From a virus, in IMG/VR virus record IMGVR_UViG_3300033121_000981, positions 1 through 64,000 of that record: 64,000 nt of DNA, one strand, 5' to 3'. The first letter of the stretch is position 1, and every line of letters starts with the position of its first letter. The notes beneath the pieces were generated by a model, which was given only the letters and a program-made list of their open reading frames with translations, was not told the DNA's origin and ran no database searches. The translations under genes and the position numbers were made by a program. Shown here piece after piece: positions 2,124 to 43,795 of this stretch.

Positions 2124-2421
2124 AGAACAAGAATTAATAGACGACGTAATGGATAGTTTAGATTTTCAAAAAATAGCTTCTGTTATGGAATATTTAAATT
2201 GGAAATGGGCTGGAAAAGAATTTCCTATTTCTTTAAAGACATTAAAGACAAGTGTTAGAACACGTTTAAAAGCTTTAGTTATTGAAAGTGCAAATAATAA
2301 AGAATTTTATATGGCTTCTGGAGGATTCTTTTACACAGCTTTTAGGAATAAAGAAAATGAATTAGAAGAAATTCATGTTAAATTTTGTATAGAAGACTAT
2401 GAAGCTATTTCTTGTAATTGA
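2107..2421 (+). CDS. hypothetical protein
   Basis: ORF track. Confidence 0.5.
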   Translation: MFINNKEQELIDDVMDSLDFQKIASVMEYLNWKWAGKEFPISLKTLKTSVRTRLKALVIESANNKEFYMASGGFFYTAFRNKENELEEIHVKFCIEDYEAISCN

Positions 2422-2482
2422 ATGCATGGCCTATAATCAATTTAAATTAACTATGTAATACCAACACATCACTTATGTTAAA

Positions 2483-2503
2483 AGAGGGCCGTATGAGCCC
2501 TCT
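2483..2503. terminator. hairpin AGAGGGC-N7-GCCCTCT between convergent genes; probable bidirectional terminator
   Basis: 7-bp GC-rich stem, T-run on the minus-strand side. Confidence 0.4.
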
Positions 2504-2512
2504 AATACGTTT

Positions 2513-3151
2513 CTATAGGCATTTATATTGTTCTTGCTTTGTATTATATTCTAATTCGTATTTATCTAAACTATCTTTCCATTGTTTAATATTCCTAACT
2601 ACTGATGTCATAGGAAGAGAATATTTATCTGCAATAGCTTCGTATCCAAAACCGTTTACCCTATCCTCACACATAGCTCTCATTATTTCTGGTGTTATTT
2701 TAGGAGGACGACCAAACAGCTTCCCTTCAGCCTTAGCTCTAGCTAATCCAGAGTTAGTACGCTCAATAATAATATTACGTTCTAGCTCCGCAGCAGCAGC
2801 CATTACAGTAATAATCATTTTACCCATCGAACTAGTAAGGTCAATACCATCAAATTGTAATACTCTAAGTTTAATCTTGAGACGTTTAAACTCATCGATA
2901 GTGTGCAAAATATCTGAAGCTGTACGTCCAAGCCTGTCTACCATTGTACATATGCAAGTGTCTCCAGCCTTAGCTTTCTCCATCATGGATGAGAAAGCAG
3001 GGCGTTCTAAAGCTTTAATGGAACCTGAAACACCCTCTTCAGCATACCATTCATCTACAGCATACCCTGCATTCGTAATTTCTAATTTTTGATTTTCTGT
3101 AGTTTGACCTTTTTTAGTTGTGCTGACGCGCAGGTATGCAAATATTGTCAT
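2513..3151 (-). CDS. small serine recombinase (resolvase/invertase family) with C-terminal HTH
   Basis: N-terminal YLRVSTxxQ catalytic-serine motif, DRLGR, 212 aa. Confidence 0.9.
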   Translation of the reverse strand: MTIFAYLRVSTTKKGQTTENQKLEITNAGYAVDEWYAEEGVSGSIKALERPAFSSMMEKAKAGDTCICTMVDRLGRTASDILHTIDEFKRLKIKLRVLQFDGIDLTSSMGKMIITVMAAAAELERNIIIERTNSGLARAKAEGKLFGRPPKITPEIMRAMCEDRVNGFGYEAIADKYSLPMTSVVRNIKQWKDSLDKYELEYNTKQEQYKCL

Positions 3152-3182
3152 GGAGTATTCCTATACATGTTTTATTCTGAAG

Positions 3183-3217
3183 ACATAATTGTACGAATAA
3201 TAGAATATTTCGTCAAT
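3183..3217 (-). promoter_or_regulatory. sigma70-like promoter for the recombinase gene, TTGACG-17-TACAAT
   Basis: read on minus strand; a 14-bp palindrome TTTTTTATAAAAAA lies just upstream at 3229-3242. Confidence 0.4.
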
Positions 3218-3336
3218 ATTTTTTATAAAAAATTTATTTTTAATTTCACATTTTTATTATTTTGCAGAAATTGCCATATAGAAAATATCGATAAGCTCAT
3301 AAATTTTCTTGTGGATAATTATAAATAGCTAATTTT

Positions 3337-8244: not shown

Positions 8245-8786
8245 GAATTATTAACATAATATAAAGCATCCCCATTTTGTTTTACAGCTTCTAAACATAT
8301 TTCTTCTGTTTGTTCCTTAACATACCATAAAGCATAACCATTTTGTTTAACAGCTGCTAAACATATTTCTTCTGTTTGTTCCTTAACATACCATAAAGCA
8401 TAACCATTTTGTTTAACAGCTGCTAAACATATTTCTTCTGTTTGTTCCTTAACATCCTTTAAAGCATAACCGTTTTGTTTTACAGCTTCTAAACATATTT
8501 CTTCTGTTTGTTCCTTAACATGCTCTAAAGCATAACCGTTTTGTTTTACAGCTTCTAAACATATTTCTTCTGTTTGTTCCTTGACATCCTTTAAAGCATA
8601 ACCATTTCGTTTAACAGCTTCTAAACATATTTCTTCTGTTTGTTCCTTAACACACTCTAAAGCATATCCGTTTTGTCTAACAGCTGCTAAACATATTTCT
8701 TCTGTTTGATTCTCAACATACTTTAAAGCAAACCCCTCTTGTTTAACAGCTGCTAAAGCCTCTTGTTCATTAGTGAAATATTTCAT
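8229..8786 (-). CDS. DUF4116-type tandem-repeat protein, about 8 x 20-aa repeats (EQTEEICLEAVKQNGYALKDVK)
   Basis: obvious 20-aa periodicity; 60-bp DNA repeats. Confidence 0.8.
   Translation of the reverse strand: MKYFTNEQEALAAVKQEGFALKYVENQTEEICLAAVRQNGYALECVKEQTEEICLEAVKRNGYALKDVKEQTEEICLEAVKQNGYALEHVKEQTEEICLEAVKQNGYALKDVKEQTEEICLAAVKQNGYALWYVKEQTEEICLAAVKQNGYALWYVKEQTEEICLEAVKQNGDALYYVNNSLQNK
8270..8770. repeat. about 8 tandem copies of a 60-bp unit, coding and in frame, inside CDS 8229-8786
   Basis: near-identical copies, e.g. TTGTTCCTTAACATACCATAAAGCATAACCATTTTGTTTAACAGCTGCTAAACATATTTCTTCTG. Confidence 0.8.
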
Positions 8787-9455: not shown

Positions 9456-9780
9456 TTTTAGTTCCTTTCAAAATTAATTAATAGAGTAGATATTATTACA
9501 TACAGAATAAATATGTACAACATATTTTTAAGAATTTATGAAAATAATTTATAAAATGTTATCAATAAATACATAAAACGATTTAAACGGCCCATATTCA
9601 ATTTAAATATTTACCCTAACCCTACTATTAAATTTATTTTTAAATCGATTATAGAGCGTTTTGACAAGCCTATTTTAAGTATGTATTGTATAAATTACAT
9701 TTAATAATTTTCTTGACAAAATGCGAAATATATGATGCATGCAAACTATAAGCGTGTGTCCCGCCAGGGACCATGCAAAC

Positions 9781-9810
9781 TATAAAAATAGTTTACACAA
9801 ATTTAAAATT
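9781..9810 (+). promoter_or_regulatory. sigma70-like promoter TTTACA-18-TATAAT in a non-coding region
   Basis: no plus-strand ORF downstream; followed by hairpins. Confidence 0.5.
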
Positions 9811-9884
9811 GTGTGTATAATAGCTGCATTGATACAACAAACTATCAATATGACAATTTAAGCAGCGACGAGAGGCGCAACCCT

Positions 9885-9914
9885 GCTGGGTGCGCTTGAC
9901 TACAATCTTTAGCG
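9885..9914 (+). promoter_or_regulatory. second tandem promoter, TTGACT-18-TATAAA
   Basis: seen directly. Confidence 0.5.
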
Positions 9915-10149
9915 TTAAGTATAAATTTAATGTTATTTTTTGAATGTAAGTAGCCCTTGCGCGTAATATTTATACGTTGATTTTTACGTAGCTACTGTTA
10001 CGCCTAAAATTATTTTATTGCTTTATTAGCAAGATATTGTAATATCGATAATATTAATAAATTATTAATGTTTCATTTTTGGAAACGTTTTTGCTTATTT
10101 TGATATTACTAAATTTGGATACCAAAAATCCTATAAGAAGGTTTAAAAA

Positions 10150-23798: not shown

Positions 23799-25454
23799 AT
23801 GGGTTATGAAAAAGGGCATTACAAAATGGCTAATAAAGAAGAATTTGTGCCGAAAGAAACTGTAAAAGATATTTTAACATATCCTTTCAAAGACATCCCT
23901 TTCAGAGGTTTGCGAAAAGAAACCTGCGAGAAGTTTGGTGTTCGTGTAGCTGTTAGTGAATCTGATGGTAAAACAATTGAGTCGGTATATTTCCCTTCAT
24001 TTAATCAAAAAGGTAAGATTGTTGGTTTTAAGAAACAAGATTGTACTAAAGATAAAAGTGAGAAATATCATTGGTCTACTATTGGTAGTGTTTCTATTTC
24101 CAATAAATTGTTTGGACAGGAAGTTGCTGAAAATGTGAAGCGTAAAAGAAACTCCCTTGTATATGTGGAAGGTGAGTATGATGCAATGTCTTGCTATCAA
24201 GCTATGGTTGACCAAGTGCAGAATACGAAGTACGCTAACCTTGAACCATTTGTTGTCAGTATTCCTTTAGGTACAGCTAATGCTGTAGAAGCTACGCTGC
24301 ACAATAACGAGTTTGTGCAAAGCTTTGATTCTCTATGTATATTCTTTGATGACGATTATTGTACCCCTGCTGAGAAGCAAAAAGGTATAATGAAGGGGCA
24401 TGAAGCTCGTGAAGCTGTAGCTTCTGCTATGCTTGGTACAAACATGTCTTTGTTTGTTCTCACGACAGAGGGAAGTTATAAAGATGCTTCTGATATGTTA
24501 CAAGATGGAAAATCTGAAGAGTTAGCTAAATTAGTGCAATTTGGTAAGAGAGCTTTCTCAGCAGAAAAGATTGTTAAAGCTAGTGATATTAGTTTAGAGG
24601 AAGTAATAGCTCCTAGGCCAGAAGGTATCTATGTTAAAGAATTTCCTAAGCTGATGGAAAAGATACATGGCTTCAGAAAGCGTGAGTTAGTATTATTGAC
24701 AAGCCCATCCGGTGTAGGTAAATCTACTGTTGTTTCTAAGTTTTCTTCAGCTATTATGCAAGCTGGGGAGCGTGTTGGGATGATTTATTTAGAAGAAACA
24801 AACATTGAGACAATGCAACGTATGATTGCAGGAGAGCTGAAAGTTAATTTTAATAAATTCCGTAATAATCCATTATCTGTAGCTTCTCATGAAGCAATTG
24901 CAGCAGCTAAGAAGAAGATTGATGATAATGACCAATTAATTATGCTAGGACATTTTGGTAGCTTGCCTATTTCAGAATTAATGGCTAAAATTAAACATAT
25001 GCACTTAGTGGAGAAATGCGGATATATCTTTATCGATCATTTGTCTGTAGTAATTAGCGGCTCTCAAATTGATAATGAACGTAAAGAGCTTGATATTGTG
25101 ATGACAGAATTGGCTGCCTTCTGTGCCTCTAATGATGTAGGGATTATTGCCATTTCACATATTAAGCGTTTAGAAGCTTCTGATTTAAAACCTGCTAAGG
25201 GTAAAGAAGATCAACCATTTTGGGTAAAAGTTACTAAAGAAATGATGCGCGGTAGCGCTGCATTAGAACAGCTTAGTTGGATTGTAATTGGACTTGAACC
25301 TGAGATATTACCAGATAGGAAACGTGGCAGGGTGAGGCTTACAAGCCTTAAGAATCGACCTTGGAGCTATCTAGGAGAAGCTGATACATTTAAGATGGAT
25401 GAAGAGACGTGGGAAGTTATTTTATCTGTTTCTGATAATGATGGGAGTTTTTGA
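23799..25454 (+). CDS. primase-helicase (T7 gp4-like: Toprim plus DnaB-family helicase)
   Basis: Toprim EGEYDAMS; Walker A SPSGVGKST; Walker B IFIDHLS; 551 aa. Confidence 0.85.
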   Translation: MGYEKGHYKMANKEEFVPKETVKDILTYPFKDIPFRGLRKETCEKFGVRVAVSESDGKTIESVYFPSFNQKGKIVGFKKQDCTKDKSEKYHWSTIGSVSISNKLFGQEVAENVKRKRNSLVYVEGEYDAMSCYQAMVDQVQNTKYANLEPFVVSIPLGTANAVEATLHNNEFVQSFDSLCIFFDDDYCTPAEKQKGIMKGHEAREAVASAMLGTNMSLFVLTTEGSYKDASDMLQDGKSEELAKLVQFGKRAFSAEKIVKASDISLEEVIAPRPEGIYVKEFPKLMEKIHGFRKRELVLLTSPSGVGKSTVVSKFSSAIMQAGERVGMIYLEETNIETMQRMIAGELKVNFNKFRNNPLSVASHEAIAAAKKKIDDNDQLIMLGHFGSLPISELMAKIKHMHLVEKCGYIFIDHLSVVISGSQIDNERKELDIVMTELAAFCASNDVGIIAISHIKRLEASDLKPAKGKEDQPFWVKVTKEMMRGSAALEQLSWIVIGLEPEILPDRKRGRVRLTSLKNRPWSYLGEADTFKMDEETWEVILSVSDNDGSF

Positions 25455-25951
25455 TTATGCTTGAATTGTTTGGAAGAAAAATAAAACCAACTAAATTAAC
25501 AGTGATTACAGGTGTTACTAGTCAAGAGTTCTTCAGAGAACTTCATAATAGCAATTCAAGCCCGCCACTTTTTAAATATTTTGGTACAGATATACATAGA
25601 ACTCCTTCGGAACAGAGGAAACTCGCAAAAGATATAGTTCAATGTATTAAAGAGGGTGTAGATAATAGTATAATGTTAATCACAAATAGTGATCACTGTA
25701 TAAAAGAGTTAAACACATATATTATGATACAATCTCTGAACCAGGATATTTCCGAGAAGTATCCAGAATACCCAACAGGATGTGGGCTGGATTACAAACT
25801 TGTTTCTGCCTATGAAATGTTTAATGGTGAATTAGTCGCTTGTGAAATTAATGAAAATATGGGTATAGAGGTAAAAAGTTTTAACAAGGAAATTGATTAT
25901 CAAAACGAGGTTAGTAGCCATATTTATTACGGAAGGGAAGGGTGGTATTGA
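25451..25951 (+). CDS. hypothetical protein
   Basis: ORF track; ATGA overlap with the helicase. Confidence 0.55.
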   Translation: MIMLELFGRKIKPTKLTVITGVTSQEFFRELHNSNSSPPLFKYFGTDIHRTPSEQRKLAKDIVQCIKEGVDNSIMLITNSDHCIKELNTYIMIQSLNQDISEKYPEYPTGCGLDYKLVSAYEMFNGELVACEINENMGIEVKSFNKEIDYQNEVSSHIYYGREGWY

Positions 25952-26295
25952 TGAGTAAAGTATTTGAAAGATTAAACTTTAATTTGTTGGCTGACTTAGG
26001 GAATAAATCTAAGCAAGAAATTATTACATATCTGGATAATATACCAGGTGACTATTTCTTACGAGTAGATGACTATGGTGAAATTTACATTGAATCTGTA
26101 AGGGAAGAAAAACCTTTTGAGAGAGAACGCCGCGTTAAGCTAGAAAAGCTGGAAGCTGAAGCCAAAGATGCTAGAGACAAGCAAGATAAACTTGACACTA
26201 TTAAAAATTTGAAAGATACTCTTAATAAATTAGAATCAGATTTTAATAGAAATCGTACTAATCTTCTTAGTAAATTAGCGAGGTTAGAAACGTGA
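25942..26295 (+). CDS. hypothetical coiled-coil protein
   Basis: ORF track. Confidence 0.5.
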   Translation: MVLMSKVFERLNFNLLADLGNKSKQEIITYLDNIPGDYFLRVDDYGEIYIESVREEKPFERERRVKLEKLEAEAKDARDKQDKLDTIKNLKDTLNKLESDFNRNRTNLLSKLARLET

Positions 26296-26483
26296 AACAT
26301 TTCTTTATACTAACTATGTTTTTGTTTTCGTGCTATTATATTTGGTATTATTGTGAGCACCATAATAAAGTATTGTTTTTAATGAAAGTAATAAATCAAA
26401 TATGTAAATTTGGTGCTATACTATGTGTAGTAGTTTTTATCTTGTTGTTATCTGTTAATTTAAAATCATTATCAATTGTTTAA
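26292..26483 (+). CDS. small two-TM membrane protein (possible NfeD-like partner of the SPFH protein)
   Basis: two hydrophobic segments; sits immediately upstream of the SPFH gene. Confidence 0.45.
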   Translation: MKHFFILTMFLFSCYYIWYYCEHHNKVLFLMKVINQICKFGAILCVVVFILLLSVNLKSLSIV

Positions 26484-26492
26484 AGGAAATTT

Positions 26493-27299
26493 ATGAAACG
26501 TTTATTTTTAGCTTTAGTTTTACCTATTATTTTATGTGCTTGCACACAAATCGATACAGGTAATGTTGGTGTAGAATCTACTCTTGGGCAAGTAGGTAAA
26601 GAAACTATGTCACCTGGGGTTTATTTCACATTGTTTAAGCGTGTGACAGAAGTGTCTACCAAAGAACTTCGTCTATCATTAGATGATTTAAAGCCACAGA
26701 CAAAAGATAAAATTACTTTGTCAGATTTAGATGTTGATATTTTCTATCAATTAAATCCATCTAAAGTAGTTGAAGTAATGACACGTTGGCCAGGTGACGC
26801 AATCCACTTAGATGGGGAAGATGGTGTACGTTTAGGTAATAATTTTGTCACACGACAAGCAAGAGAATCTATTTACAACGCTATTTCAAAATATGGCTCG
26901 GATGTGGTTCATACAGAGCGTGCTAACATCTCTGCAAATGTGGTAGAATCTTTACAAAAAGATTTAGATGAATCCGTAGGGAAGGGTGTATTCTTTATTC
27001 GTAGTGCTAATGTTCGTAATTTAGTTACAGACCCAGCTTTGGAACAATCTATTAAAGAATCTGCAAATCGTAATTTCCAGATTGCAGCTAAACAAAAGGA
27101 TATTGAATTGGCTCGTGCAGAAGCTGAACGTAAACGTGTAGAAGCACAAGGAGAAGCTGATGCAATTAAATTACGCTCTTCTGCAATTTCAGCGCAAGGA
27201 GGTTCTGAATATGTGCAATTGAAAGCTATTGAAAAATGGGATGGTAAACTTCCTACAACACAAGGTGGTACAATAACACCTTTTATTCAGGTTAAATAA
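26493..27299 (+). CDS. SPFH/band-7 (prohibitin/HflKC-like) domain protein with N-terminal signal or lipoprotein-like sequence
   Basis: N-terminal LALVLPIILCAC; C-terminal Ala/Glu-rich coiled region typical of band-7 proteins. Confidence 0.75.
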   Translation: MKRLFLALVLPIILCACTQIDTGNVGVESTLGQVGKETMSPGVYFTLFKRVTEVSTKELRLSLDDLKPQTKDKITLSDLDVDIFYQLNPSKVVEVMTRWPGDAIHLDGEDGVRLGNNFVTRQARESIYNAISKYGSDVVHTERANISANVVESLQKDLDESVGKGVFFIRSANVRNLVTDPALEQSIKESANRNFQIAAKQKDIELARAEAERKRVEAQGEADAIKLRSSAISAQGGSEYVQLKAIEKWDGKLPTTQGGTITPFIQVK

Positions 27300-27323
27300 T
27301 TAACATACAGAAGGGATGCTAAA

Positions 27324-27581
27324 ATGAAAAAAGATACATACGAAATTATTTACAATCCAGCTAACCTATTATTTAAATATGAGGTATGGATTAATGGTGA
27401 TGTTCATAGCGTTGTATATGATGATTTAAATATTCCTTCTGTTGTTTTTAAAAATGTAACGAAATGTGTTGGAGCTTACTTAACAGTTAATCAAGCTCAA
27501 GCACGTATTGATTATCAAGAGTCTCTTAATCAATTTAAAGAGAAGTCTGGTCAATGGAAACTTGGACACAATAATGGATAA
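27324..27581 (+). CDS. hypothetical protein
   Basis: ORF track. Confidence 0.45.
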   Translation: MKKDTYEIIYNPANLLFKYEVWINGDVHSVVYDDLNIPSVVFKNVTKCVGAYLTVNQAQARIDYQESLNQFKEKSGQWKLGHNNG

Positions 27582-27789
27582 TATTTTAACTAATATTGTT
27601 TCAGAATTAATTGATGTTAACGATAAACAACCAGAAAGCGGAAGTAGTGTTTTAGCTTTAACAGTAGGAGGTAAACTTTGTGAAGTTGTTTGGACAAGTA
27701 ATTCTCACAAATATTACGATGCTTGGTGTGTTTATCCTAAGATTCCTAAAAGTGTTAAGGAAAGACAAGTTGAAAGATTTAAAAATTAA
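27574..27789 (+). CDS. hypothetical protein (start moved to internal Met MDNILT)
   Basis: avoids a 74-nt overlap; ATG overlaps the upstream stop. Confidence 0.4.
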   Translation: MDNILTNIVSELIDVNDKQPESGSSVLALTVGGKLCEVVWTSNSHKYYDAWCVYPKIPKSVKERQVERFKN

Positions 27790-27807
27790 AACTAAGGAGA
27801 AAAATTT

Positions 27808-28242
27808 ATGCAACTAATTAGAAAATCTGTATTTGAAACAAATTCAAGCTCATGCCACAGTTTATCAATTTCCTCTGGCGATGTTCTTGATAGCATTACT
27901 CCAGACTATGAAGATAGTATTAAAATCCCTGCCATGGATTTTGGTTGGGAAATTAAAAGATATAATGCACCTATAGAAAAATTAACATACGTTTACATTT
28001 ATATTAGAGATTGGTGTCGTGGCCCAATACAAGAATTATTTATGGATATTTTATGGGAAGTTGTTTGCAAGCACACGGGTGCAACTAGCCTAGTGTACAT
28101 GGGTGATGAAAATGAGGGATTCATTGACCACCAATCTGTAGAGGACAATAATTTAGATTATTTGTTTGAAGACAAAGAGCTATTAAAACAATTCATTTTT
28201 AATCCAGATTCCATCCTATACACAGATAATGATAATCACTAA
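27808..28242 (+). CDS. hypothetical acidic protein
   Basis: ORF track. Confidence 0.55.
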   Translation: MQLIRKSVFETNSSSCHSLSISSGDVLDSITPDYEDSIKIPAMDFGWEIKRYNAPIEKLTYVYIYIRDWCRGPIQELFMDILWEVVCKHTGATSLVYMGDENEGFIDHQSVEDNNLDYLFEDKELLKQFIFNPDSILYTDNDNH

Positions 28243-28254
28243 TTAAGGAATTAT

Positions 28255-29142
28255 ATGCAGCTTTTATCTGAATGCAATAATGGTAATGCTAATATTAAAA
28301 TTTATGAAGACGGTACAAGAGTTATTACCTGTGATGAGGAAATACTTAATCTTAAATACCCTTTAAATATAGATATTCGGATTAGCGAAAAGTGCGCTTT
28401 TGGTCTTAATCCAAAAACAGGTAAAGCTGTTTGTAATTTCTGTCACGAGTCTGCAACGACAGATGGTGAAGATGCAGACTTGAATATCCTGTTTAATACT
28501 TTAAGCGAACTTCCTTCTGGGGTAGAATTAGCAATCGGTGTTAATCAAGTTCCAGAAGGTTTCATAAAATTCTTAGAAAAATGTAAACAGAAAGGTTGGA
28601 TTGTTAATATTACAATTAACCAAGGACATGTGAGGCGTGACAAAGAAAAGCTTCTCTGGTTGATTAAAAATAACTTAATTAATGGTTTAGGTATTAGTTA
28701 TAGAAGCGGTATGCTTGATATTCCAGACGAGTTACTTGCGTATAAAAACACTGTTGTACATGTTATTTCTGGAATTGATACTATAGATGAAATAATAGCT
28801 TTAGCATCTAAAGGGTTTAAAAAGGTATTAGTGTTAGGTGAAAAAGATTTTGGATTCAATCTAGGCAAGGTGAAAATAACTACAGAAACCCATAGGCAAT
28901 GGTATAGAAGGGTTTGGGAACTATTCGCATTGTTTGATATTGTATCTTTTGACAACCTTGCTTTAGAACAATTAAATGTTAAGAGATTTGTTAAAAATTG
29001 GGATGAGGTATATCAGCATGAGTATAGTTTTTATATAAATGCGGTTCAGAAATACTTTTCACCAAGTAGTAGATCAAATGAAAAAACTTACTACAAAACA
29101 AAGAATACAAATATTGCGCAATATTTTGAAAGTATTATTTAG
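28255..29142 (+). CDS. hypothetical protein with Cys-x12-Cys-x2-Cys cluster and alternating beta/alpha pattern (radical-SAM-like?)
   Basis: CAFGLNPKTGKAVCNFCHE; a speculative resemblance to CX14CX2C radical-SAM enzymes. Confidence 0.5.
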   Translation: MQLLSECNNGNANIKIYEDGTRVITCDEEILNLKYPLNIDIRISEKCAFGLNPKTGKAVCNFCHESATTDGEDADLNILFNTLSELPSGVELAIGVNQVPEGFIKFLEKCKQKGWIVNITINQGHVRRDKEKLLWLIKNNLINGLGISYRSGMLDIPDELLAYKNTVVHVISGIDTIDEIIALASKGFKKVLVLGEKDFGFNLGKVKITTETHRQWYRRVWELFALFDIVSFDNLALEQLNVKRFVKNWDEVYQHEYSFYINAVQKYFSPSSRSNEKTYYKTKNTNIAQYFESII

Positions 29143-29156
29143 TTTAAAGGAAAATA

Positions 29157-29384
29157 ATGGCACGAGTAGAGATTAGTAAATGGGATATTGCTTCGATGTT
29201 TGGCCTTGTCTATAAGGGAGAGGATGCTAGAGATGACAACGGGGGTTATTCGTATTATTTCATGTTCAAAGGTAAAGAACACATCATTACACAAGATTAT
29301 TACAACTGTCCTGACGAAGAAGAGGCAAAAGAACAGATGGCAGAAAGAGTTATCCAAGCTATCGTTGCAGGTGTTATGATTTAA
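29157..29384 (+). CDS. hypothetical protein
   Basis: ORF track. Confidence 0.5.
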   Translation: MARVEISKWDIASMFGLVYKGEDARDDNGGYSYYFMFKGKEHIITQDYYNCPDEEEAKEQMAERVIQAIVAGVMI

Positions 29385-40747: not shown

Positions 40748-40921
40748 ATGGGTAAGAATCTTTTAGGAGTTGTATTTATTCTAGGTGTATTGGCACTGTG
40801 TTATGGCTGGGTTATGAATATTGTTGCTATCTGGAATACTCAAGCATTAACAGGCACTTTAATTGCCCGCGTAATTGGTACATTTATCGCACCTTTGGGT
40901 GGTGTATTGGGGTATCTATAA
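40748..40921 (+). CDS. small membrane peptide, 57 aa, stop/start TAATG coupled to the next gene
   Basis: MGKNLLGVVFILGVLALCYGW... Confidence 0.35.
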   Translation: MGKNLLGVVFILGVLALCYGWVMNIVAIWNTQALTGTLIARVIGTFIAPLGGVLGYL

Positions 40922-41788: not shown

Positions 41789-42031
41789 TTATTGTTTATA
41801 ATTACTACTGTTAGACACAGCTCTTATTAAAGCATTCTTACTATCAGAGCATTCATAATAAATAGCTGCGTTATTAGTAATATTCTTTATTAAATCAGCT
41901 CCTGTTGTTCCCTCAAGGCTTTCTAATGATGGGCAAGTCTGAAGCAGGGAAGGTGGGAGTTGAATTTCCTGAGAGCGCTTTATTGATGAGCAACAAGCCG
42001 TCAGAGTCAATACAAGAGTTATGATAAACAT
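41789..42031 (-). CDS. o-spanin (Rz1-like outer-membrane lipoprotein), overlapping the i-spanin gene
   Basis: signal peptide plus lipobox LTAC; Pro-rich mature part. Confidence 0.6.
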   Translation of the reverse strand: MFIITLVLTLTACCSSIKRSQEIQLPPSLLQTCPSLESLEGTTGADLIKNITNNAAIYYECSDSKNALIRAVSNSSNYKQ

Positions 42032-42275
42032 CCCTTGTAACAATCTTTTCCACTGTTTTTGTGATTGTCTTTGCATTATCTACCCTCTTTAATTTCAATT
42101 CTTCCAGTTCTTGAGCTATTGTATTATATTTAATAGCTGTAGCTCTATCTGAAATAGCTTGTTCAGCTAACATCTTATTATGTTCGCTATCAACACCGTA
42201 AGAATAGGAATAAAAACAGACAACTAATACAAATAAAATAAATGATAATATTTTAATATAAAATGTTTTATCCAT
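41913..42275 (-). CDS. i-spanin (Rz-like): N-terminal TM plus periplasmic coiled coil
   Basis: MDKTFYIKILSFILFVLVV followed by coiled coil; overlaps the Rz1 frame. Confidence 0.6.
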   Translation of the reverse strand: MDKTFYIKILSFILFVLVVCFYSYSYGVDSEHNKMLAEQAISDRATAIKYNTIAQELEELKLKRVDNAKTITKTVEKIVTRDVYHNSCIDSDGLLLINKALSGNSTPTFPASDLPIIRKP

Positions 42276-42495
42276 CCCTATCCTCATTTTTACCAGATAC
42301 ATTAGGTTGATGTAATAGACGTGCAAACAATATAGCTAAACCAACCCATTTTACCCACCCATCAGGTACAGCTTCTTTAATATCAGGAAGGTAATCATAA
42401 GCAGTAGATGCTATAACAAGTAACGCACTAAGTTGCACAGTTAGGTATTTATACGCCTTTTTCCAATTAGGAATTAACATATTACCCTCTAACAC
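42268..42495 (-). CDS. holin (two TM segments, charged C-terminus)
   Basis: 75 aa, two hydrophobic segments, adjacent to the lysozyme. Confidence 0.55.
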   Translation of the reverse strand: MLEGNMLIPNWKKAYKYLTVQLSALLVIASTAYDYLPDIKEAVPDGWVKWVGLAILFARLLHQPNVSGKNEDRDG

Positions 42496-43045
42496 TTAAG
42501 AATAAATTCCTGCGCACATTACACCTATTCACTAATCCTTGTATAATTTTACCTCCAACCTTATTCCACATAAGAAAAGCATCAGCAGCAGCTAAAATAT
42601 CACCCTCAGCAATCTTCTTAGCCACTGTGGAATTTGTATAAGCTGATACACCAACGTTGTATGCCATATCAATACAAGCAGCTAAACGCTCTGGGGCTTG
42701 ATTAGAGAGCTTTGGGGAGGTTTTTAAAACAGCGTCCATAACAACCTTCACCTTAGCTGCTAAATCGCTGTCAGCCCGTTCCTGAGTCCATTCTACGCCT
42801 TCTTTAATTTCAGCCCCTGTACAACCCCATCCAATTGTCCAAGGATTCCCTTTTAGATGACTCCATTCTTTTGGAATTTTAAATTCACCATCTTTGTATG
42901 CTTTTAATTTACCATGTGAAGCTAGTGCTTCTGATAAATCACTACAAGGATCGGGGTAGGCTTTTAAACAACACCCTTCATTGTTTTTAATTAATTTTAA
43001 TGCAATTTTAAATGCTTCATTATTACTATTACTCATACCTATCAC
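42482..43045 (-). CDS. endolysin, T4-type lysozyme (GH24)
   Basis: NEG..LKAYPD...TIGWG catalytic Glu/Asp/Thr region. Confidence 0.85.
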   Translation of the reverse strand: MIGMSNSNNEAFKIALKLIKNNEGCCLKAYPDPCSDLSEALASHGKLKAYKDGEFKIPKEWSHLKGNPWTIGWGCTGAEIKEGVEWTQERADSDLAAKVKVVMDAVLKTSPKLSNQAPERLAACIDMAYNVGVSAYTNSTVAKKIAEGDILAAADAFLMWNKVGGKIIQGLVNRCNVRRNLFLSVRG

Positions 43046-43317
43046 CTTTTGCTTTTTAGAATTATAATTTCCAATTGTTGTGACATTTGTTTTTGTAGTT
43101 CAATAAGTTCAATGCGTTTAACGTAACTTTCTTTTATATTTGCAACTTCAGCTTTAACACTAATTAATTCCGACCGCATGATTTCATGAGAATCAACAAG
43201 CCTAACTATCTGAACATATGTAGCAAACACACCAACGCACAATGCTATAATAAGGGATGGCATAACTTTGTCTCGTATCCATACCCAGAAATCAAACTTA
43301 CGTTGCGCTACTGTCAT
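43042..43317 (-). CDS. membrane-anchored coiled-coil protein in the lysis cassette (antiholin or spanin-like?)
   Basis: one N-terminal TM plus coiled coil. Confidence 0.4.
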   Translation of the reverse strand: MTVAQRKFDFWVWIRDKVMPSLIIALCVGVFATYVQIVRLVDSHEIMRSELISVKAEVANIKESYVKRIELIELQKQMSQQLEIIILKSKR

Positions 43318-43324
43318 TACAACC

Positions 43325-43795
43325 CTATTTAGTTAAATTGAAAATTTCAGATTTTTTATAATTACAATCGTATAAATCTTGTGGTGTTACTCTTTTTTGC
43401 ACAGATTTATCTAGTAAATCAATACCACCAGCAGATATCTGCATGAAACAGAACTCAGAACACCACCATTTAGACCAGTCAGCCCAATCCTCAGACATTA
43501 GGAAGGGTATACCTAATACACCCATAAAATCATACCCCTTACCTTTTTGATCTATTCCCCAACATTTAGCTTTATCAATATCAGGGATAGGGATATACAT
43601 GTCTTGGTAATATTTAACGCCTTGCATAGCTACATCTATAGGGACAATTCTGCAACCATCTGACATAGTTGCTTCGTATGCTTTATCATCTATAATAATT
43701 AAACAATGACTCCACATTTTTGATCCGCCTAGACGAGCCACTAACCATGAGCCTATATGATAGGGCCACCTACTACAAAATCGTAGAGTAATCAT
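43325..43795 (-). CDS. hypothetical protein with Cys/His motifs (possible papain-like peptidase fold)
   Basis: WSHC, WWCSEFC; weak. Confidence 0.4.
   Translation of the reverse strand: MITLRFCSRWPYHIGSWLVARLGGSKMWSHCLIIIDDKAYEATMSDGCRIVPIDVAMQGVKYYQDMYIPIPDIDKAKCWGIDQKGKGYDFMGVLGIPFLMSEDWADWSKWWCSEFCFMQISAGGIDLLDKSVQKRVTPQDLYDCNYKKSEIFNLTK

Follow-up and report, generated by a model that had tools for sequence, protein, structure and literature searches.

Within the 64,000-nucleotide (nt) stretch of viral DNA analysed here (positions 1 to 64,000 of the IMG/VR virus record IMGVR_UViG_3300033121_000981, hereafter the window), two closely spaced genes on the plus strand and in the same frame encode a 63-amino-acid (aa) membrane protein (the partner) and, directly 3' of it, a 268-aa SPFH-domain protein with a predicted lipid anchor. 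Comparison of related phage and bacterial loci supports the view that the two genes form a conserved operon-like unit. The unit has been transferred between unrelated phages, its SPFH gene is under strong purifying selection, and the best explanation of its source appears to be a cellular, Burkholderiales-type origin. Both open reading frames (ORFs) lie where an earlier note, made from the sequence alone, had placed them, with the partner immediately upstream.

The assignment of the larger gene to the SPFH/band-7 family in the earlier note holds, with a significant match to Pfam Band_7 (PF01145; E=1.3e-14, 55.1 bits against a gathering cut-off of 23.6 bits) that extends over positions 2-176 of the 176 in the profile (residues 19-211 of the protein). 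In PHROG, the family phrog_200, labelled 'lipoprotein', matched residues 4-267 (E=8.2e-48, 164 bits) and phrog_38808 matched residues 208-268, and scans of NCBIfam and PADLOC returned no match for the SPFH protein. A profile search of PDB with the close-family alignment A1 (25 sequences) had no match at E<=0.01; it took the broader alignment A2 to reach prohibitin, its profile matching prohibitin-2 at E=3.4e-6 over residues 126-259, including the coiled-coil region, and other prohibitins as well. The AlphaFold2 (AF2) model shows the expected order of elements, i.e., the strands and helices of SPFH2 followed by helices at residues 181-234 and 237-247 (assigned by DSSP; predicted local distance difference test scores, pLDDT, of 65-83 in the C-terminal stretch), and its top Foldseek matches were prohibitin, stomatin, erlin and HflK/C, and also FliL. 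The prohibitin/HflKC-like C-terminal coiled region that had been suggested was thus recovered both in the model and in the prohibitin-2 match; it is presumed to be the oligomerisation region.

The N-terminus of the protein (MKRLFLALVLPIILCAC) reads as a lipoprotein signal, an attribution that had also been made earlier: MKR-LFLALVLPIIL-CAC has the basic residues, the hydrophobic stretch and the pattern [LVI][ASTVIC][GAS]C, with the lipobox at L14-C-A-C17. Alignment A1 shows no variation at L14 and C17 and almost none at A16, and C17 is likewise constant throughout the phage and bacterial families of alignment A2. Cys17 is therefore predicted to be the lipidated first residue of the mature protein, and the signal for export and lipidation would place the SPFH domain in the periplasm. 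Because the domain begins two residues after Cys17, there is no tether between the two. The lipobox and the order of domains suggest a prohibitin-like protein in which a lipid anchor replaces the usual N-terminal transmembrane (TM) helix. No second adjacent SPFH paralogue was seen in the window region or in any related locus (a single SPFH gene throughout), and no protease gene was a conserved neighbour among the bacterial or phage loci examined.

The partner starts with a GTG codon that overlaps the TGA stop codon of the preceding ORF (GTGA), with GAGG 8 nt upstream. Its layout is M-K-H, a first TM stretch at about residues 4-22, a basic loop at about 23-40, a second TM stretch at about 41-56, and a short hydrophobic C-terminal tail. 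In alignment A3 of the partner family the length is 63 aa save in two bacterial members of 59 aa, Y15 is invariant, and W18 and H36 are near-invariant; length and layout are kept, yet identity to the window copy is only 11-30%. The earlier note had likened the pair to NfeD-SPFH operons, and this likeness did not survive: no NfeD match and no consistent match to any other family was returned by Pfam for 26 members at E<=1 or for ten further members at E<=10, or by NCBIfam, the window partner had no NfeD match in Pfam at E<=0.1, and the SPFH protein is predicted to be exported. The partner family matched no family in a PDB profile search, the partner protein had no match in PADLOC or NCBIfam (the defence-family threshold for both proteins of the pair was E<=0.1) and no holin match in PHROG, and tblastn of the 63-aa sequence against the phage records gave no match even at E<=10. 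A candidate relationship to the N-terminal two-helix hairpin of cytochrome c oxidase subunit II (COX II) was rejected as hairpin and composition noise; the resemblance is full-length and sub-threshold (PDB, E=0.1-0.45; NCBIfam CoxB in 4 of the 26 members, best E=4.9e-4), and it is probably noise because Pfam gave no support (no COX2 family for ten members at E<=10). Antisense ORFs around the pair are short and without conservation, and the window contains no tRNA genes.

The search for homologues of the SPFH protein returned hundreds of proteins (266-271 aa, 71-81% identity) on metagenome contigs of up to 95 kb, the family being annotated automatically as 'regulator of protease activity HflC'. 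The 63-aa partner lies directly 5' of the SPFH gene in every one of the 32 related phage loci with upstream DNA present (hidden Markov model, HMM, E=1e-16 to 1e-24), and the two are the only genes common to all of these loci. Bacterial genomes were surveyed with one genome per species, yielding 53 loci, nearly all in Burkholderiales; the partner is directly 5' of the SPFH gene in 39 of them (E=1e-15 to 1e-24 over phage and bacterial loci together), 13 have no upstream partner and one more is cut off. These counts bear out the pairing with a small two-TM gene that had been read from the window. The start and stop codons of the pair overlap or lie close together, and neither the bacterial nor the phage loci have a third conserved gene. 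An identical copy of the window pair was present in an independent sequencing run, and the locus had no megablast match among 50,697 phage records.

Among the bacterial genera with SPFH loci are Undibacterium, Inhella, Roseateles/Pelomonas, Hydrogenophaga, Acidovorax, Rhodoferax and Ideonella. The SPFH lipoproteins encoded there share 37-46% identity with the window protein, match Band_7 as well (Pfam; two chromosomal loci), and are annotated just as 'SPFH domain-containing protein', 'HflC' or 'prohibitin 1'. In Undibacterium flavidum (locus L097) the pair is flanked by EamA, AsmA, NUDIX, DUF815 and ArgJ genes, and in Acidovorax (L099, without an upstream partner) the SPFH gene adjoins genes of a Cys/Met pyridoxal-phosphate enzyme and a CRP-type regulator; in these two loci the flanking genes are of housekeeping type and the contexts are not those of prophages.

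Among phages, the pair was found on at least four different, unrelated backbones, consistently beside, and on the same strand as, replication or recombination genes. The first is that of the window phage, the helicase-primase and polymerase of which are 67% and 42% identical, respectively, to those of its nearest known relative, Pseudomonas phage vB_PsaM_M1 (Ounavirinae); in vB_PsaM_M1 the helicase and polymerase genes are separated by just 10 nt, and at this place the window has the accessory insert listed in Table 1. The second is a phage with polA, a UvrD helicase and an AEP primase, and the third, represented by YuA-like phages, also has an LPD38 polyvalent protein, ERF, PDDEXK, a methyltransferase and an AcrVA2-like gene. 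The fourth is a lambdoid prophage in an Aquabacterium metagenome-assembled genome (L083, NZ_CAJYGK010000058.1), in which O-like, DnaC-like and NinG genes follow directly after the pair. The SPFH protein of this prophage is 79% identical to that of the phage locus L078, and Aquabacterium is the probable host genus of the GC-rich phage clade.

The GC content of all relatives is 0.50-0.60 versus 0.34 for the window, and at third codon positions (GC3) the SPFH gene has 0.18 in the window versus 0.78 in the phage locus L002, although the two proteins are 76% identical (up to 81% with P0003). Such identity despite the GC3 gap indicates that the window gene is fully adapted to an AT-rich genome and strongly constrained. 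The ratio of nonsynonymous to synonymous substitution rates (dN/dS) was taken from gene pairs with unsaturated synonymous sites. Of nine pairs of the SPFH gene, eight gave 0.02-0.09 and the most divergent one, L027/L078, gave 0.23; the partner, with a usable dS in seven pairs, gave 0.10-0.35 in six of them and 0.61 in L027/L078.

The coordinates of these features, of the lysis genes of the window and of comparable genes in other loci are collected in Table 1. Apart from the pair, the window insert also contains a 295-aa gene resembling phrog_16999 'Fe-S oxidoreductase' (28255-29142). A further two-TM protein of 54-55 aa (W..TH..VC.KTASW...GTG.WFG) is encoded near the pair, upstream or downstream, in 10 of the 32 phage loci and is absent from the window; a 57-aa two-TM gene of the window (40748-40921, phrog_6006) was considered as its relative and rejected, there being no significant similarity (E=0.63). 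In the YuA-like locus L137, a 49-aa Cys/Thr-rich signal-sequence peptide (MKKALIALWIAATATTTWAACTTHTITSGGRMVTCTTCCFGGNCTTNCF) is encoded just downstream of the pair (8360-8509). Beside the lysis cassette of the window, a 155-aa ORF (43325-43795, minus strand) matches phrog_1128 'enoyl-CoA hydratase/carnithine racemase-like' (E=1e-19).

Table 1. Position of the two genes, their parts and other features in the window and in related or comparable loci.
Feature	Locus	Coordinates	Strand	Remarks
Accessory insert, ~3.9 kb	Window	25451..29384	+	8 ORFs, the pair among them; flanked by helicase-primase and DNA polymerase genes
Partner gene	Window	26292..26483	+	63-aa small inner-membrane protein; two hydrophobic stretches, basic loop between
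SPFH gene	Window	26493..27299	+	268-aa prohibitin-like SPFH lipoprotein precursor; ATG start, AGGA 5 nt upstream
Lipoprotein signal peptide (predicted)	Window	26493..26543	+	Ends in lipobox L-C-A-C; Cys17 codon 26541-26543
SPFH (Band_7) domain	Window	26547..27125	+	Residues 19-211; Pfam match over full profile
C-terminal helical region	Window	27033..27299	+	Helix 181-234 (coiled-coil-like), helix 237-247; tail ...KWDGKLP...TPFI.VK conserved
Rz1-like lipoprotein o-spanin	Window	41789-42076	-	Overlaps i-spanin
Rz-like i-spanin	Window	41913-42326	-	
Endolysin	Window	42482-43045	-	phrog_7
Holin candidate	Window	43042-43317	-	91 aa, one TM
54-55-aa two-TM protein	L002	6814-6978		
54-55-aa two-TM protein	L136	10813-10977		
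54-55-aa two-TM protein	L137	8518-8682		
54-55-aa two-TM protein	L012	3627-3794		
gp103/gp102 pair	L140 (Salmonella phage SP1, Kuttervirus)	2289-3289		gp103 stop overlaps gp102 start
Unannotated 60-aa two-TM ORF	L142 (Acinetobacter baumannii plasmid)	2793-2975 = NZ_CP035046.1 49399-49581		Ends 1 nt before SPFH gene

SPFH modules had been described in the earlier note as uncommon in phages, which is not what we found: 528 of the 50,697 phage records have SPFH matches at E<=1e-5 (275 from phages of Staphylococcus, 136 of Salmonella, 31 of Escherichia, and others), and PHROG 200 is an SPFH family. SPFH domains were listed in T4-like phages in 2006 (PMC1524935) and in Vi01-like phages in 2011 (PMC3220722), and their function in phages has been called 'poorly understood' (PMC7760394). 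All 528 matches are below 60% identity to the window protein, which has no close relative in cultured phages. The SPFH 'lipoproteins' of PHROG 200 (Kuttervirus gp102-type and Kayvirus MbpS/ORF28-type) belong to the family of the window protein at an identity of only 25-36%. The arrangement in the Salmonella Kuttervirus SP1 is like that of the window, a 69-aa two-TM hairpin with a very basic loop (gp103) preceding a lipobox SPFH gene (gp102). Likewise, in 107-kb non-mobilizable plasmids of Acinetobacter baumannii, a 60-aa two-TM hairpin with a basic loop is encoded before a lipobox SPFH gene (35% identity to the window protein; 27 Acinetobacter records match), and the architecture of hairpin plus lipobox SPFH protein recurs in several metagenomic lineages. 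Staphylococcus Kayvirus is unlike the window in having a TM anchor on the SPFH protein and a single TM segment in the product of the upstream ORF. The partners in Kuttervirus, the Acinetobacter plasmids, the metagenomic lineages and Kayvirus have no detectable homology to the 63-aa family (HMM, <=10 bits).

We propose, with confidence and doubt about evenly balanced, that the pair is expressed early and that its products, an SPFH ring in the periplasm and a small partner in the membrane, condition the inner membrane of the host. The two genes would act as a self-contained, horizontally mobile membrane module. By the positive-inside rule, the partner would be an inner-membrane hairpin with its basic loop in the cytoplasm and both short ends in the periplasm. 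The SPFH protein would be exported, cleaved at the lipobox and lipidated at Cys17, and its SPFH domain would lie flat on a periplasm-facing leaflet, most likely the outer leaflet of the inner membrane; this placement is suggested by the missing tether after Cys17 and by the partner being an inner-membrane protein. Through its long C-terminal helix the protein may oligomerise into a ring or dome fencing off a patch of membrane, as the solved SPFH assemblies do (HflK/C, prohibitin, stomatin, erlin, flotillin), and the hairpin might serve as the transmembrane tether that a lipid-anchored SPFH protein lacks, or as an enclosed client. The phage would express the pair together with its early and replication genes, and the pair could then stabilise the inner membrane or limit the access of membrane proteins to quality control, e.g., by FtsH, so that the envelope would be kept energised and intact until the lysis cassette fires.

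Several observations weigh against this proposal. The residue after Cys17 is Thr or Ser and not Asp, and by the +2 rule of Escherichia coli a residue other than Asp after the Cys would direct a lipoprotein to the outer membrane, where it would be apart from a partner in the inner membrane. With 13 of the bacterial loci lacking the partner, the SPFH protein can exist alone. The AF2 model is poor (mean pLDDT 56.8, with the SPFH1 region below 50), and for this reason we take the fold search as no more than supportive. Early expression is suggested by the position of the genes only, and a scan for promoters and terminators around the pair was at chance (26 sites versus 30 expected). Finally, no functional study of any phage SPFH protein was found in the literature searched, and in this respect the description of phage SPFH modules as uncharacterised stands.

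Among the other readings, superinfection exclusion fares best, although we consider it unlikely; the lipoprotein and the small protein would here block DNA entry or receptor use by other phages after infection or lysogeny. Many of the exclusion proteins already known (Llp of T5, Imm and Sp of T4) are lipoproteins or small membrane proteins, the pair sits in early or accessory regions, a lambdoid prophage carries it, and in Kuttervirus SP1 the gene two places upstream of the pair is annotated 'superinfection exclusion'. Such a role fits poorly with homologous pairs in non-prophage chromosomal contexts across genera of Burkholderiales and with the very strong purifying selection on the SPFH gene, the product of which is 76-81% identical across differing base compositions and backbones, unlike arms-race proteins; conservation of this strength across hosts favours a conserved cellular target or a constraint from self-assembly over an arms-race function. 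Moreover, PADLOC gave no match, and no paper in the literature searched ties SPFH proteins to exclusion.

Somewhat less plausible to us than exclusion is a bolder form of the proposal, namely that the pair may be a universal plug-in membrane guard traded by phages, a periplasmic prohibitin-like cage with a minimal transmembrane subunit that would sequester a conserved machine of the host membrane (an FtsH-type protease or respiratory complex) or shield the inner membrane from immune suicide effectors. If true, this would be the first SPFH-based viral system of host takeover or counter-defence, and lipid-anchored SPFH complexes of bacteria would have in the 60-70-aa hairpin an obligatory subunit that had gone unrecognised.

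We rank counter-defence as such below both of these, as a doubtful reading in which the SPFH ring would shield or repair the inner membrane against membrane-disrupting abortive-infection effectors, or sequester one of them. A generic membrane target would agree with the portability of the module from host to host. YuA-like phages have the pair in an island with genes for Methyltransf_24, an AcrVA2-like protein and an LPD38 large polyvalent protein, and in the YuA-like locus L136 a 75-aa gene with an Acb2_Tad1_hairpin match (9760-9987; the anti-CBASS/anti-Thoeris sponge type) sits between the partner and the SPFH gene. This is, however, guilt by association, the AcrVA2-like matches are weak or faint, the neighbouring ORFs of the window that were tested gave no anti-defence match in Pfam or PHROG, and the cellular homologues suggest a housekeeping role.

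To a role in the timing of lysis, with the partner acting like a class II holin or an antiholin and the SPFH ring timing its permeabilisation of the membrane, we give very little credence. The size and two-TM layout of the partner are like those of small holins, the endolysin gene of Staphylococcus Kayvirus G1 is directly followed by the SPFH gene with its upstream membrane ORF, and in Kuttervirus SP1 the pair is preceded by a gene annotated 'endolysin'. But the window has its own lysis cassette 15 kb away on the opposite strand (holin candidate, endolysin and both spanins; since the phage encodes spanins, its host has two membranes), the pair lies among replication genes without a holin or lysis match in PHROG, and the chromosomal homologues are in housekeeping contexts. 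That the genes form a true NfeD-SPFH (stomatin-operon) pair, as the small membrane protein encoded directly 5' of the SPFH gene might suggest, is rejected as highly improbable because of domain content (no NfeD domain in the members searched, and 63 aa are too short for the NfeD OB-fold) and topology (the SPFH domain is predicted to be exported, that of NfeD partners is cytoplasmic).

Nothing in these results overturns a current view, and the interest of the pair lies in its being compact, mobile and strongly selected. The roles of SPFH proteins in bacteria are still largely unclear, and about 1% of sequenced phages carry an SPFH gene. Here a prohibitin-like protein, predicted to be lipid-anchored and to face the periplasm, travels as a fixed two-gene unit that in Burkholderiales is a chromosomal operon, and unrelated phages have captured the pair repeatedly and kept its SPFH gene under very strong purifying selection. 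The pair thereby offers a minimal portable system for asking what function SPFH rings have in the bacterial envelope and what use a virus has for one, a question that is directly testable because a like architecture is present in the cultivable Kuttervirus and in A. baumannii plasmids.

Of the known SPFH systems, prohibitin (PHB1/PHB2) of the mitochondrial inner membrane is the best profile match, and its structures 8rrh and 9o9z are the top Foldseek matches, at an identity of just 15-18%. As predicted for the window protein, its SPFH domain lies in a periplasm-equivalent compartment and is followed by a long coiled-coil helix. Prohibitin differs in having an N-terminal TM anchor and two paralogues, which assemble as 11 heterodimers (PMC12624060), whereas the window has one SPFH gene, a predicted lipid anchor and a separate 63-aa hairpin. 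The HflK/HflC-FtsH complex (Foldseek match 9cz2) is likewise a periplasm-facing SPFH assembly on the inner membrane, as we propose for the window pair, and differs in its TM-helix anchors and two SPFH paralogues, in place of a lipobox and no second paralogue. HflK/C has historically been tied to phage biology through FtsH and lambda CII. Proteobacteria carry hflKC and, if Burkholderiales do so too, the chromosomal pair would be an extra system. HflK/C influences protein stability and respiration (PMC12005517).

In NfeD-SPFH operons (YbbJ-QmcA, PH1510-PH1511), as in the window, the gene of a membrane protein is closely linked to an SPFH gene. They differ from the window in that the partner has an NfeD domain and the SPFH proteins face the cytoplasm, whereas the window partner is much smaller and its SPFH protein is predicted to be exported. 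A division of labour between small membrane proteins and an SPFH protein is known from Bacillus subtilis, where YdjG/YdjH (SamG/H) are reportedly needed to place the TM-less SPFH protein YdjI (SamI) on the membrane (PMC8581546; bioRxiv 10.64898/2026.02.06.704340). YdjI, encoded in the pspA operon, differs in being a cytosolic SPFH protein that works with PspA, and we saw no sequence relationship between the proteins of the window pair and YdjG, YdjH or YdjI. SPFH proteins generally form membrane-abutting oligomeric rings or domes (PMC12624060). Compared with these systems, the SPFH gene of the window is a member of a known phage family, and the module of a hairpin and a lipoprotein-type SPFH protein is an undescribed variant of SPFH operons.

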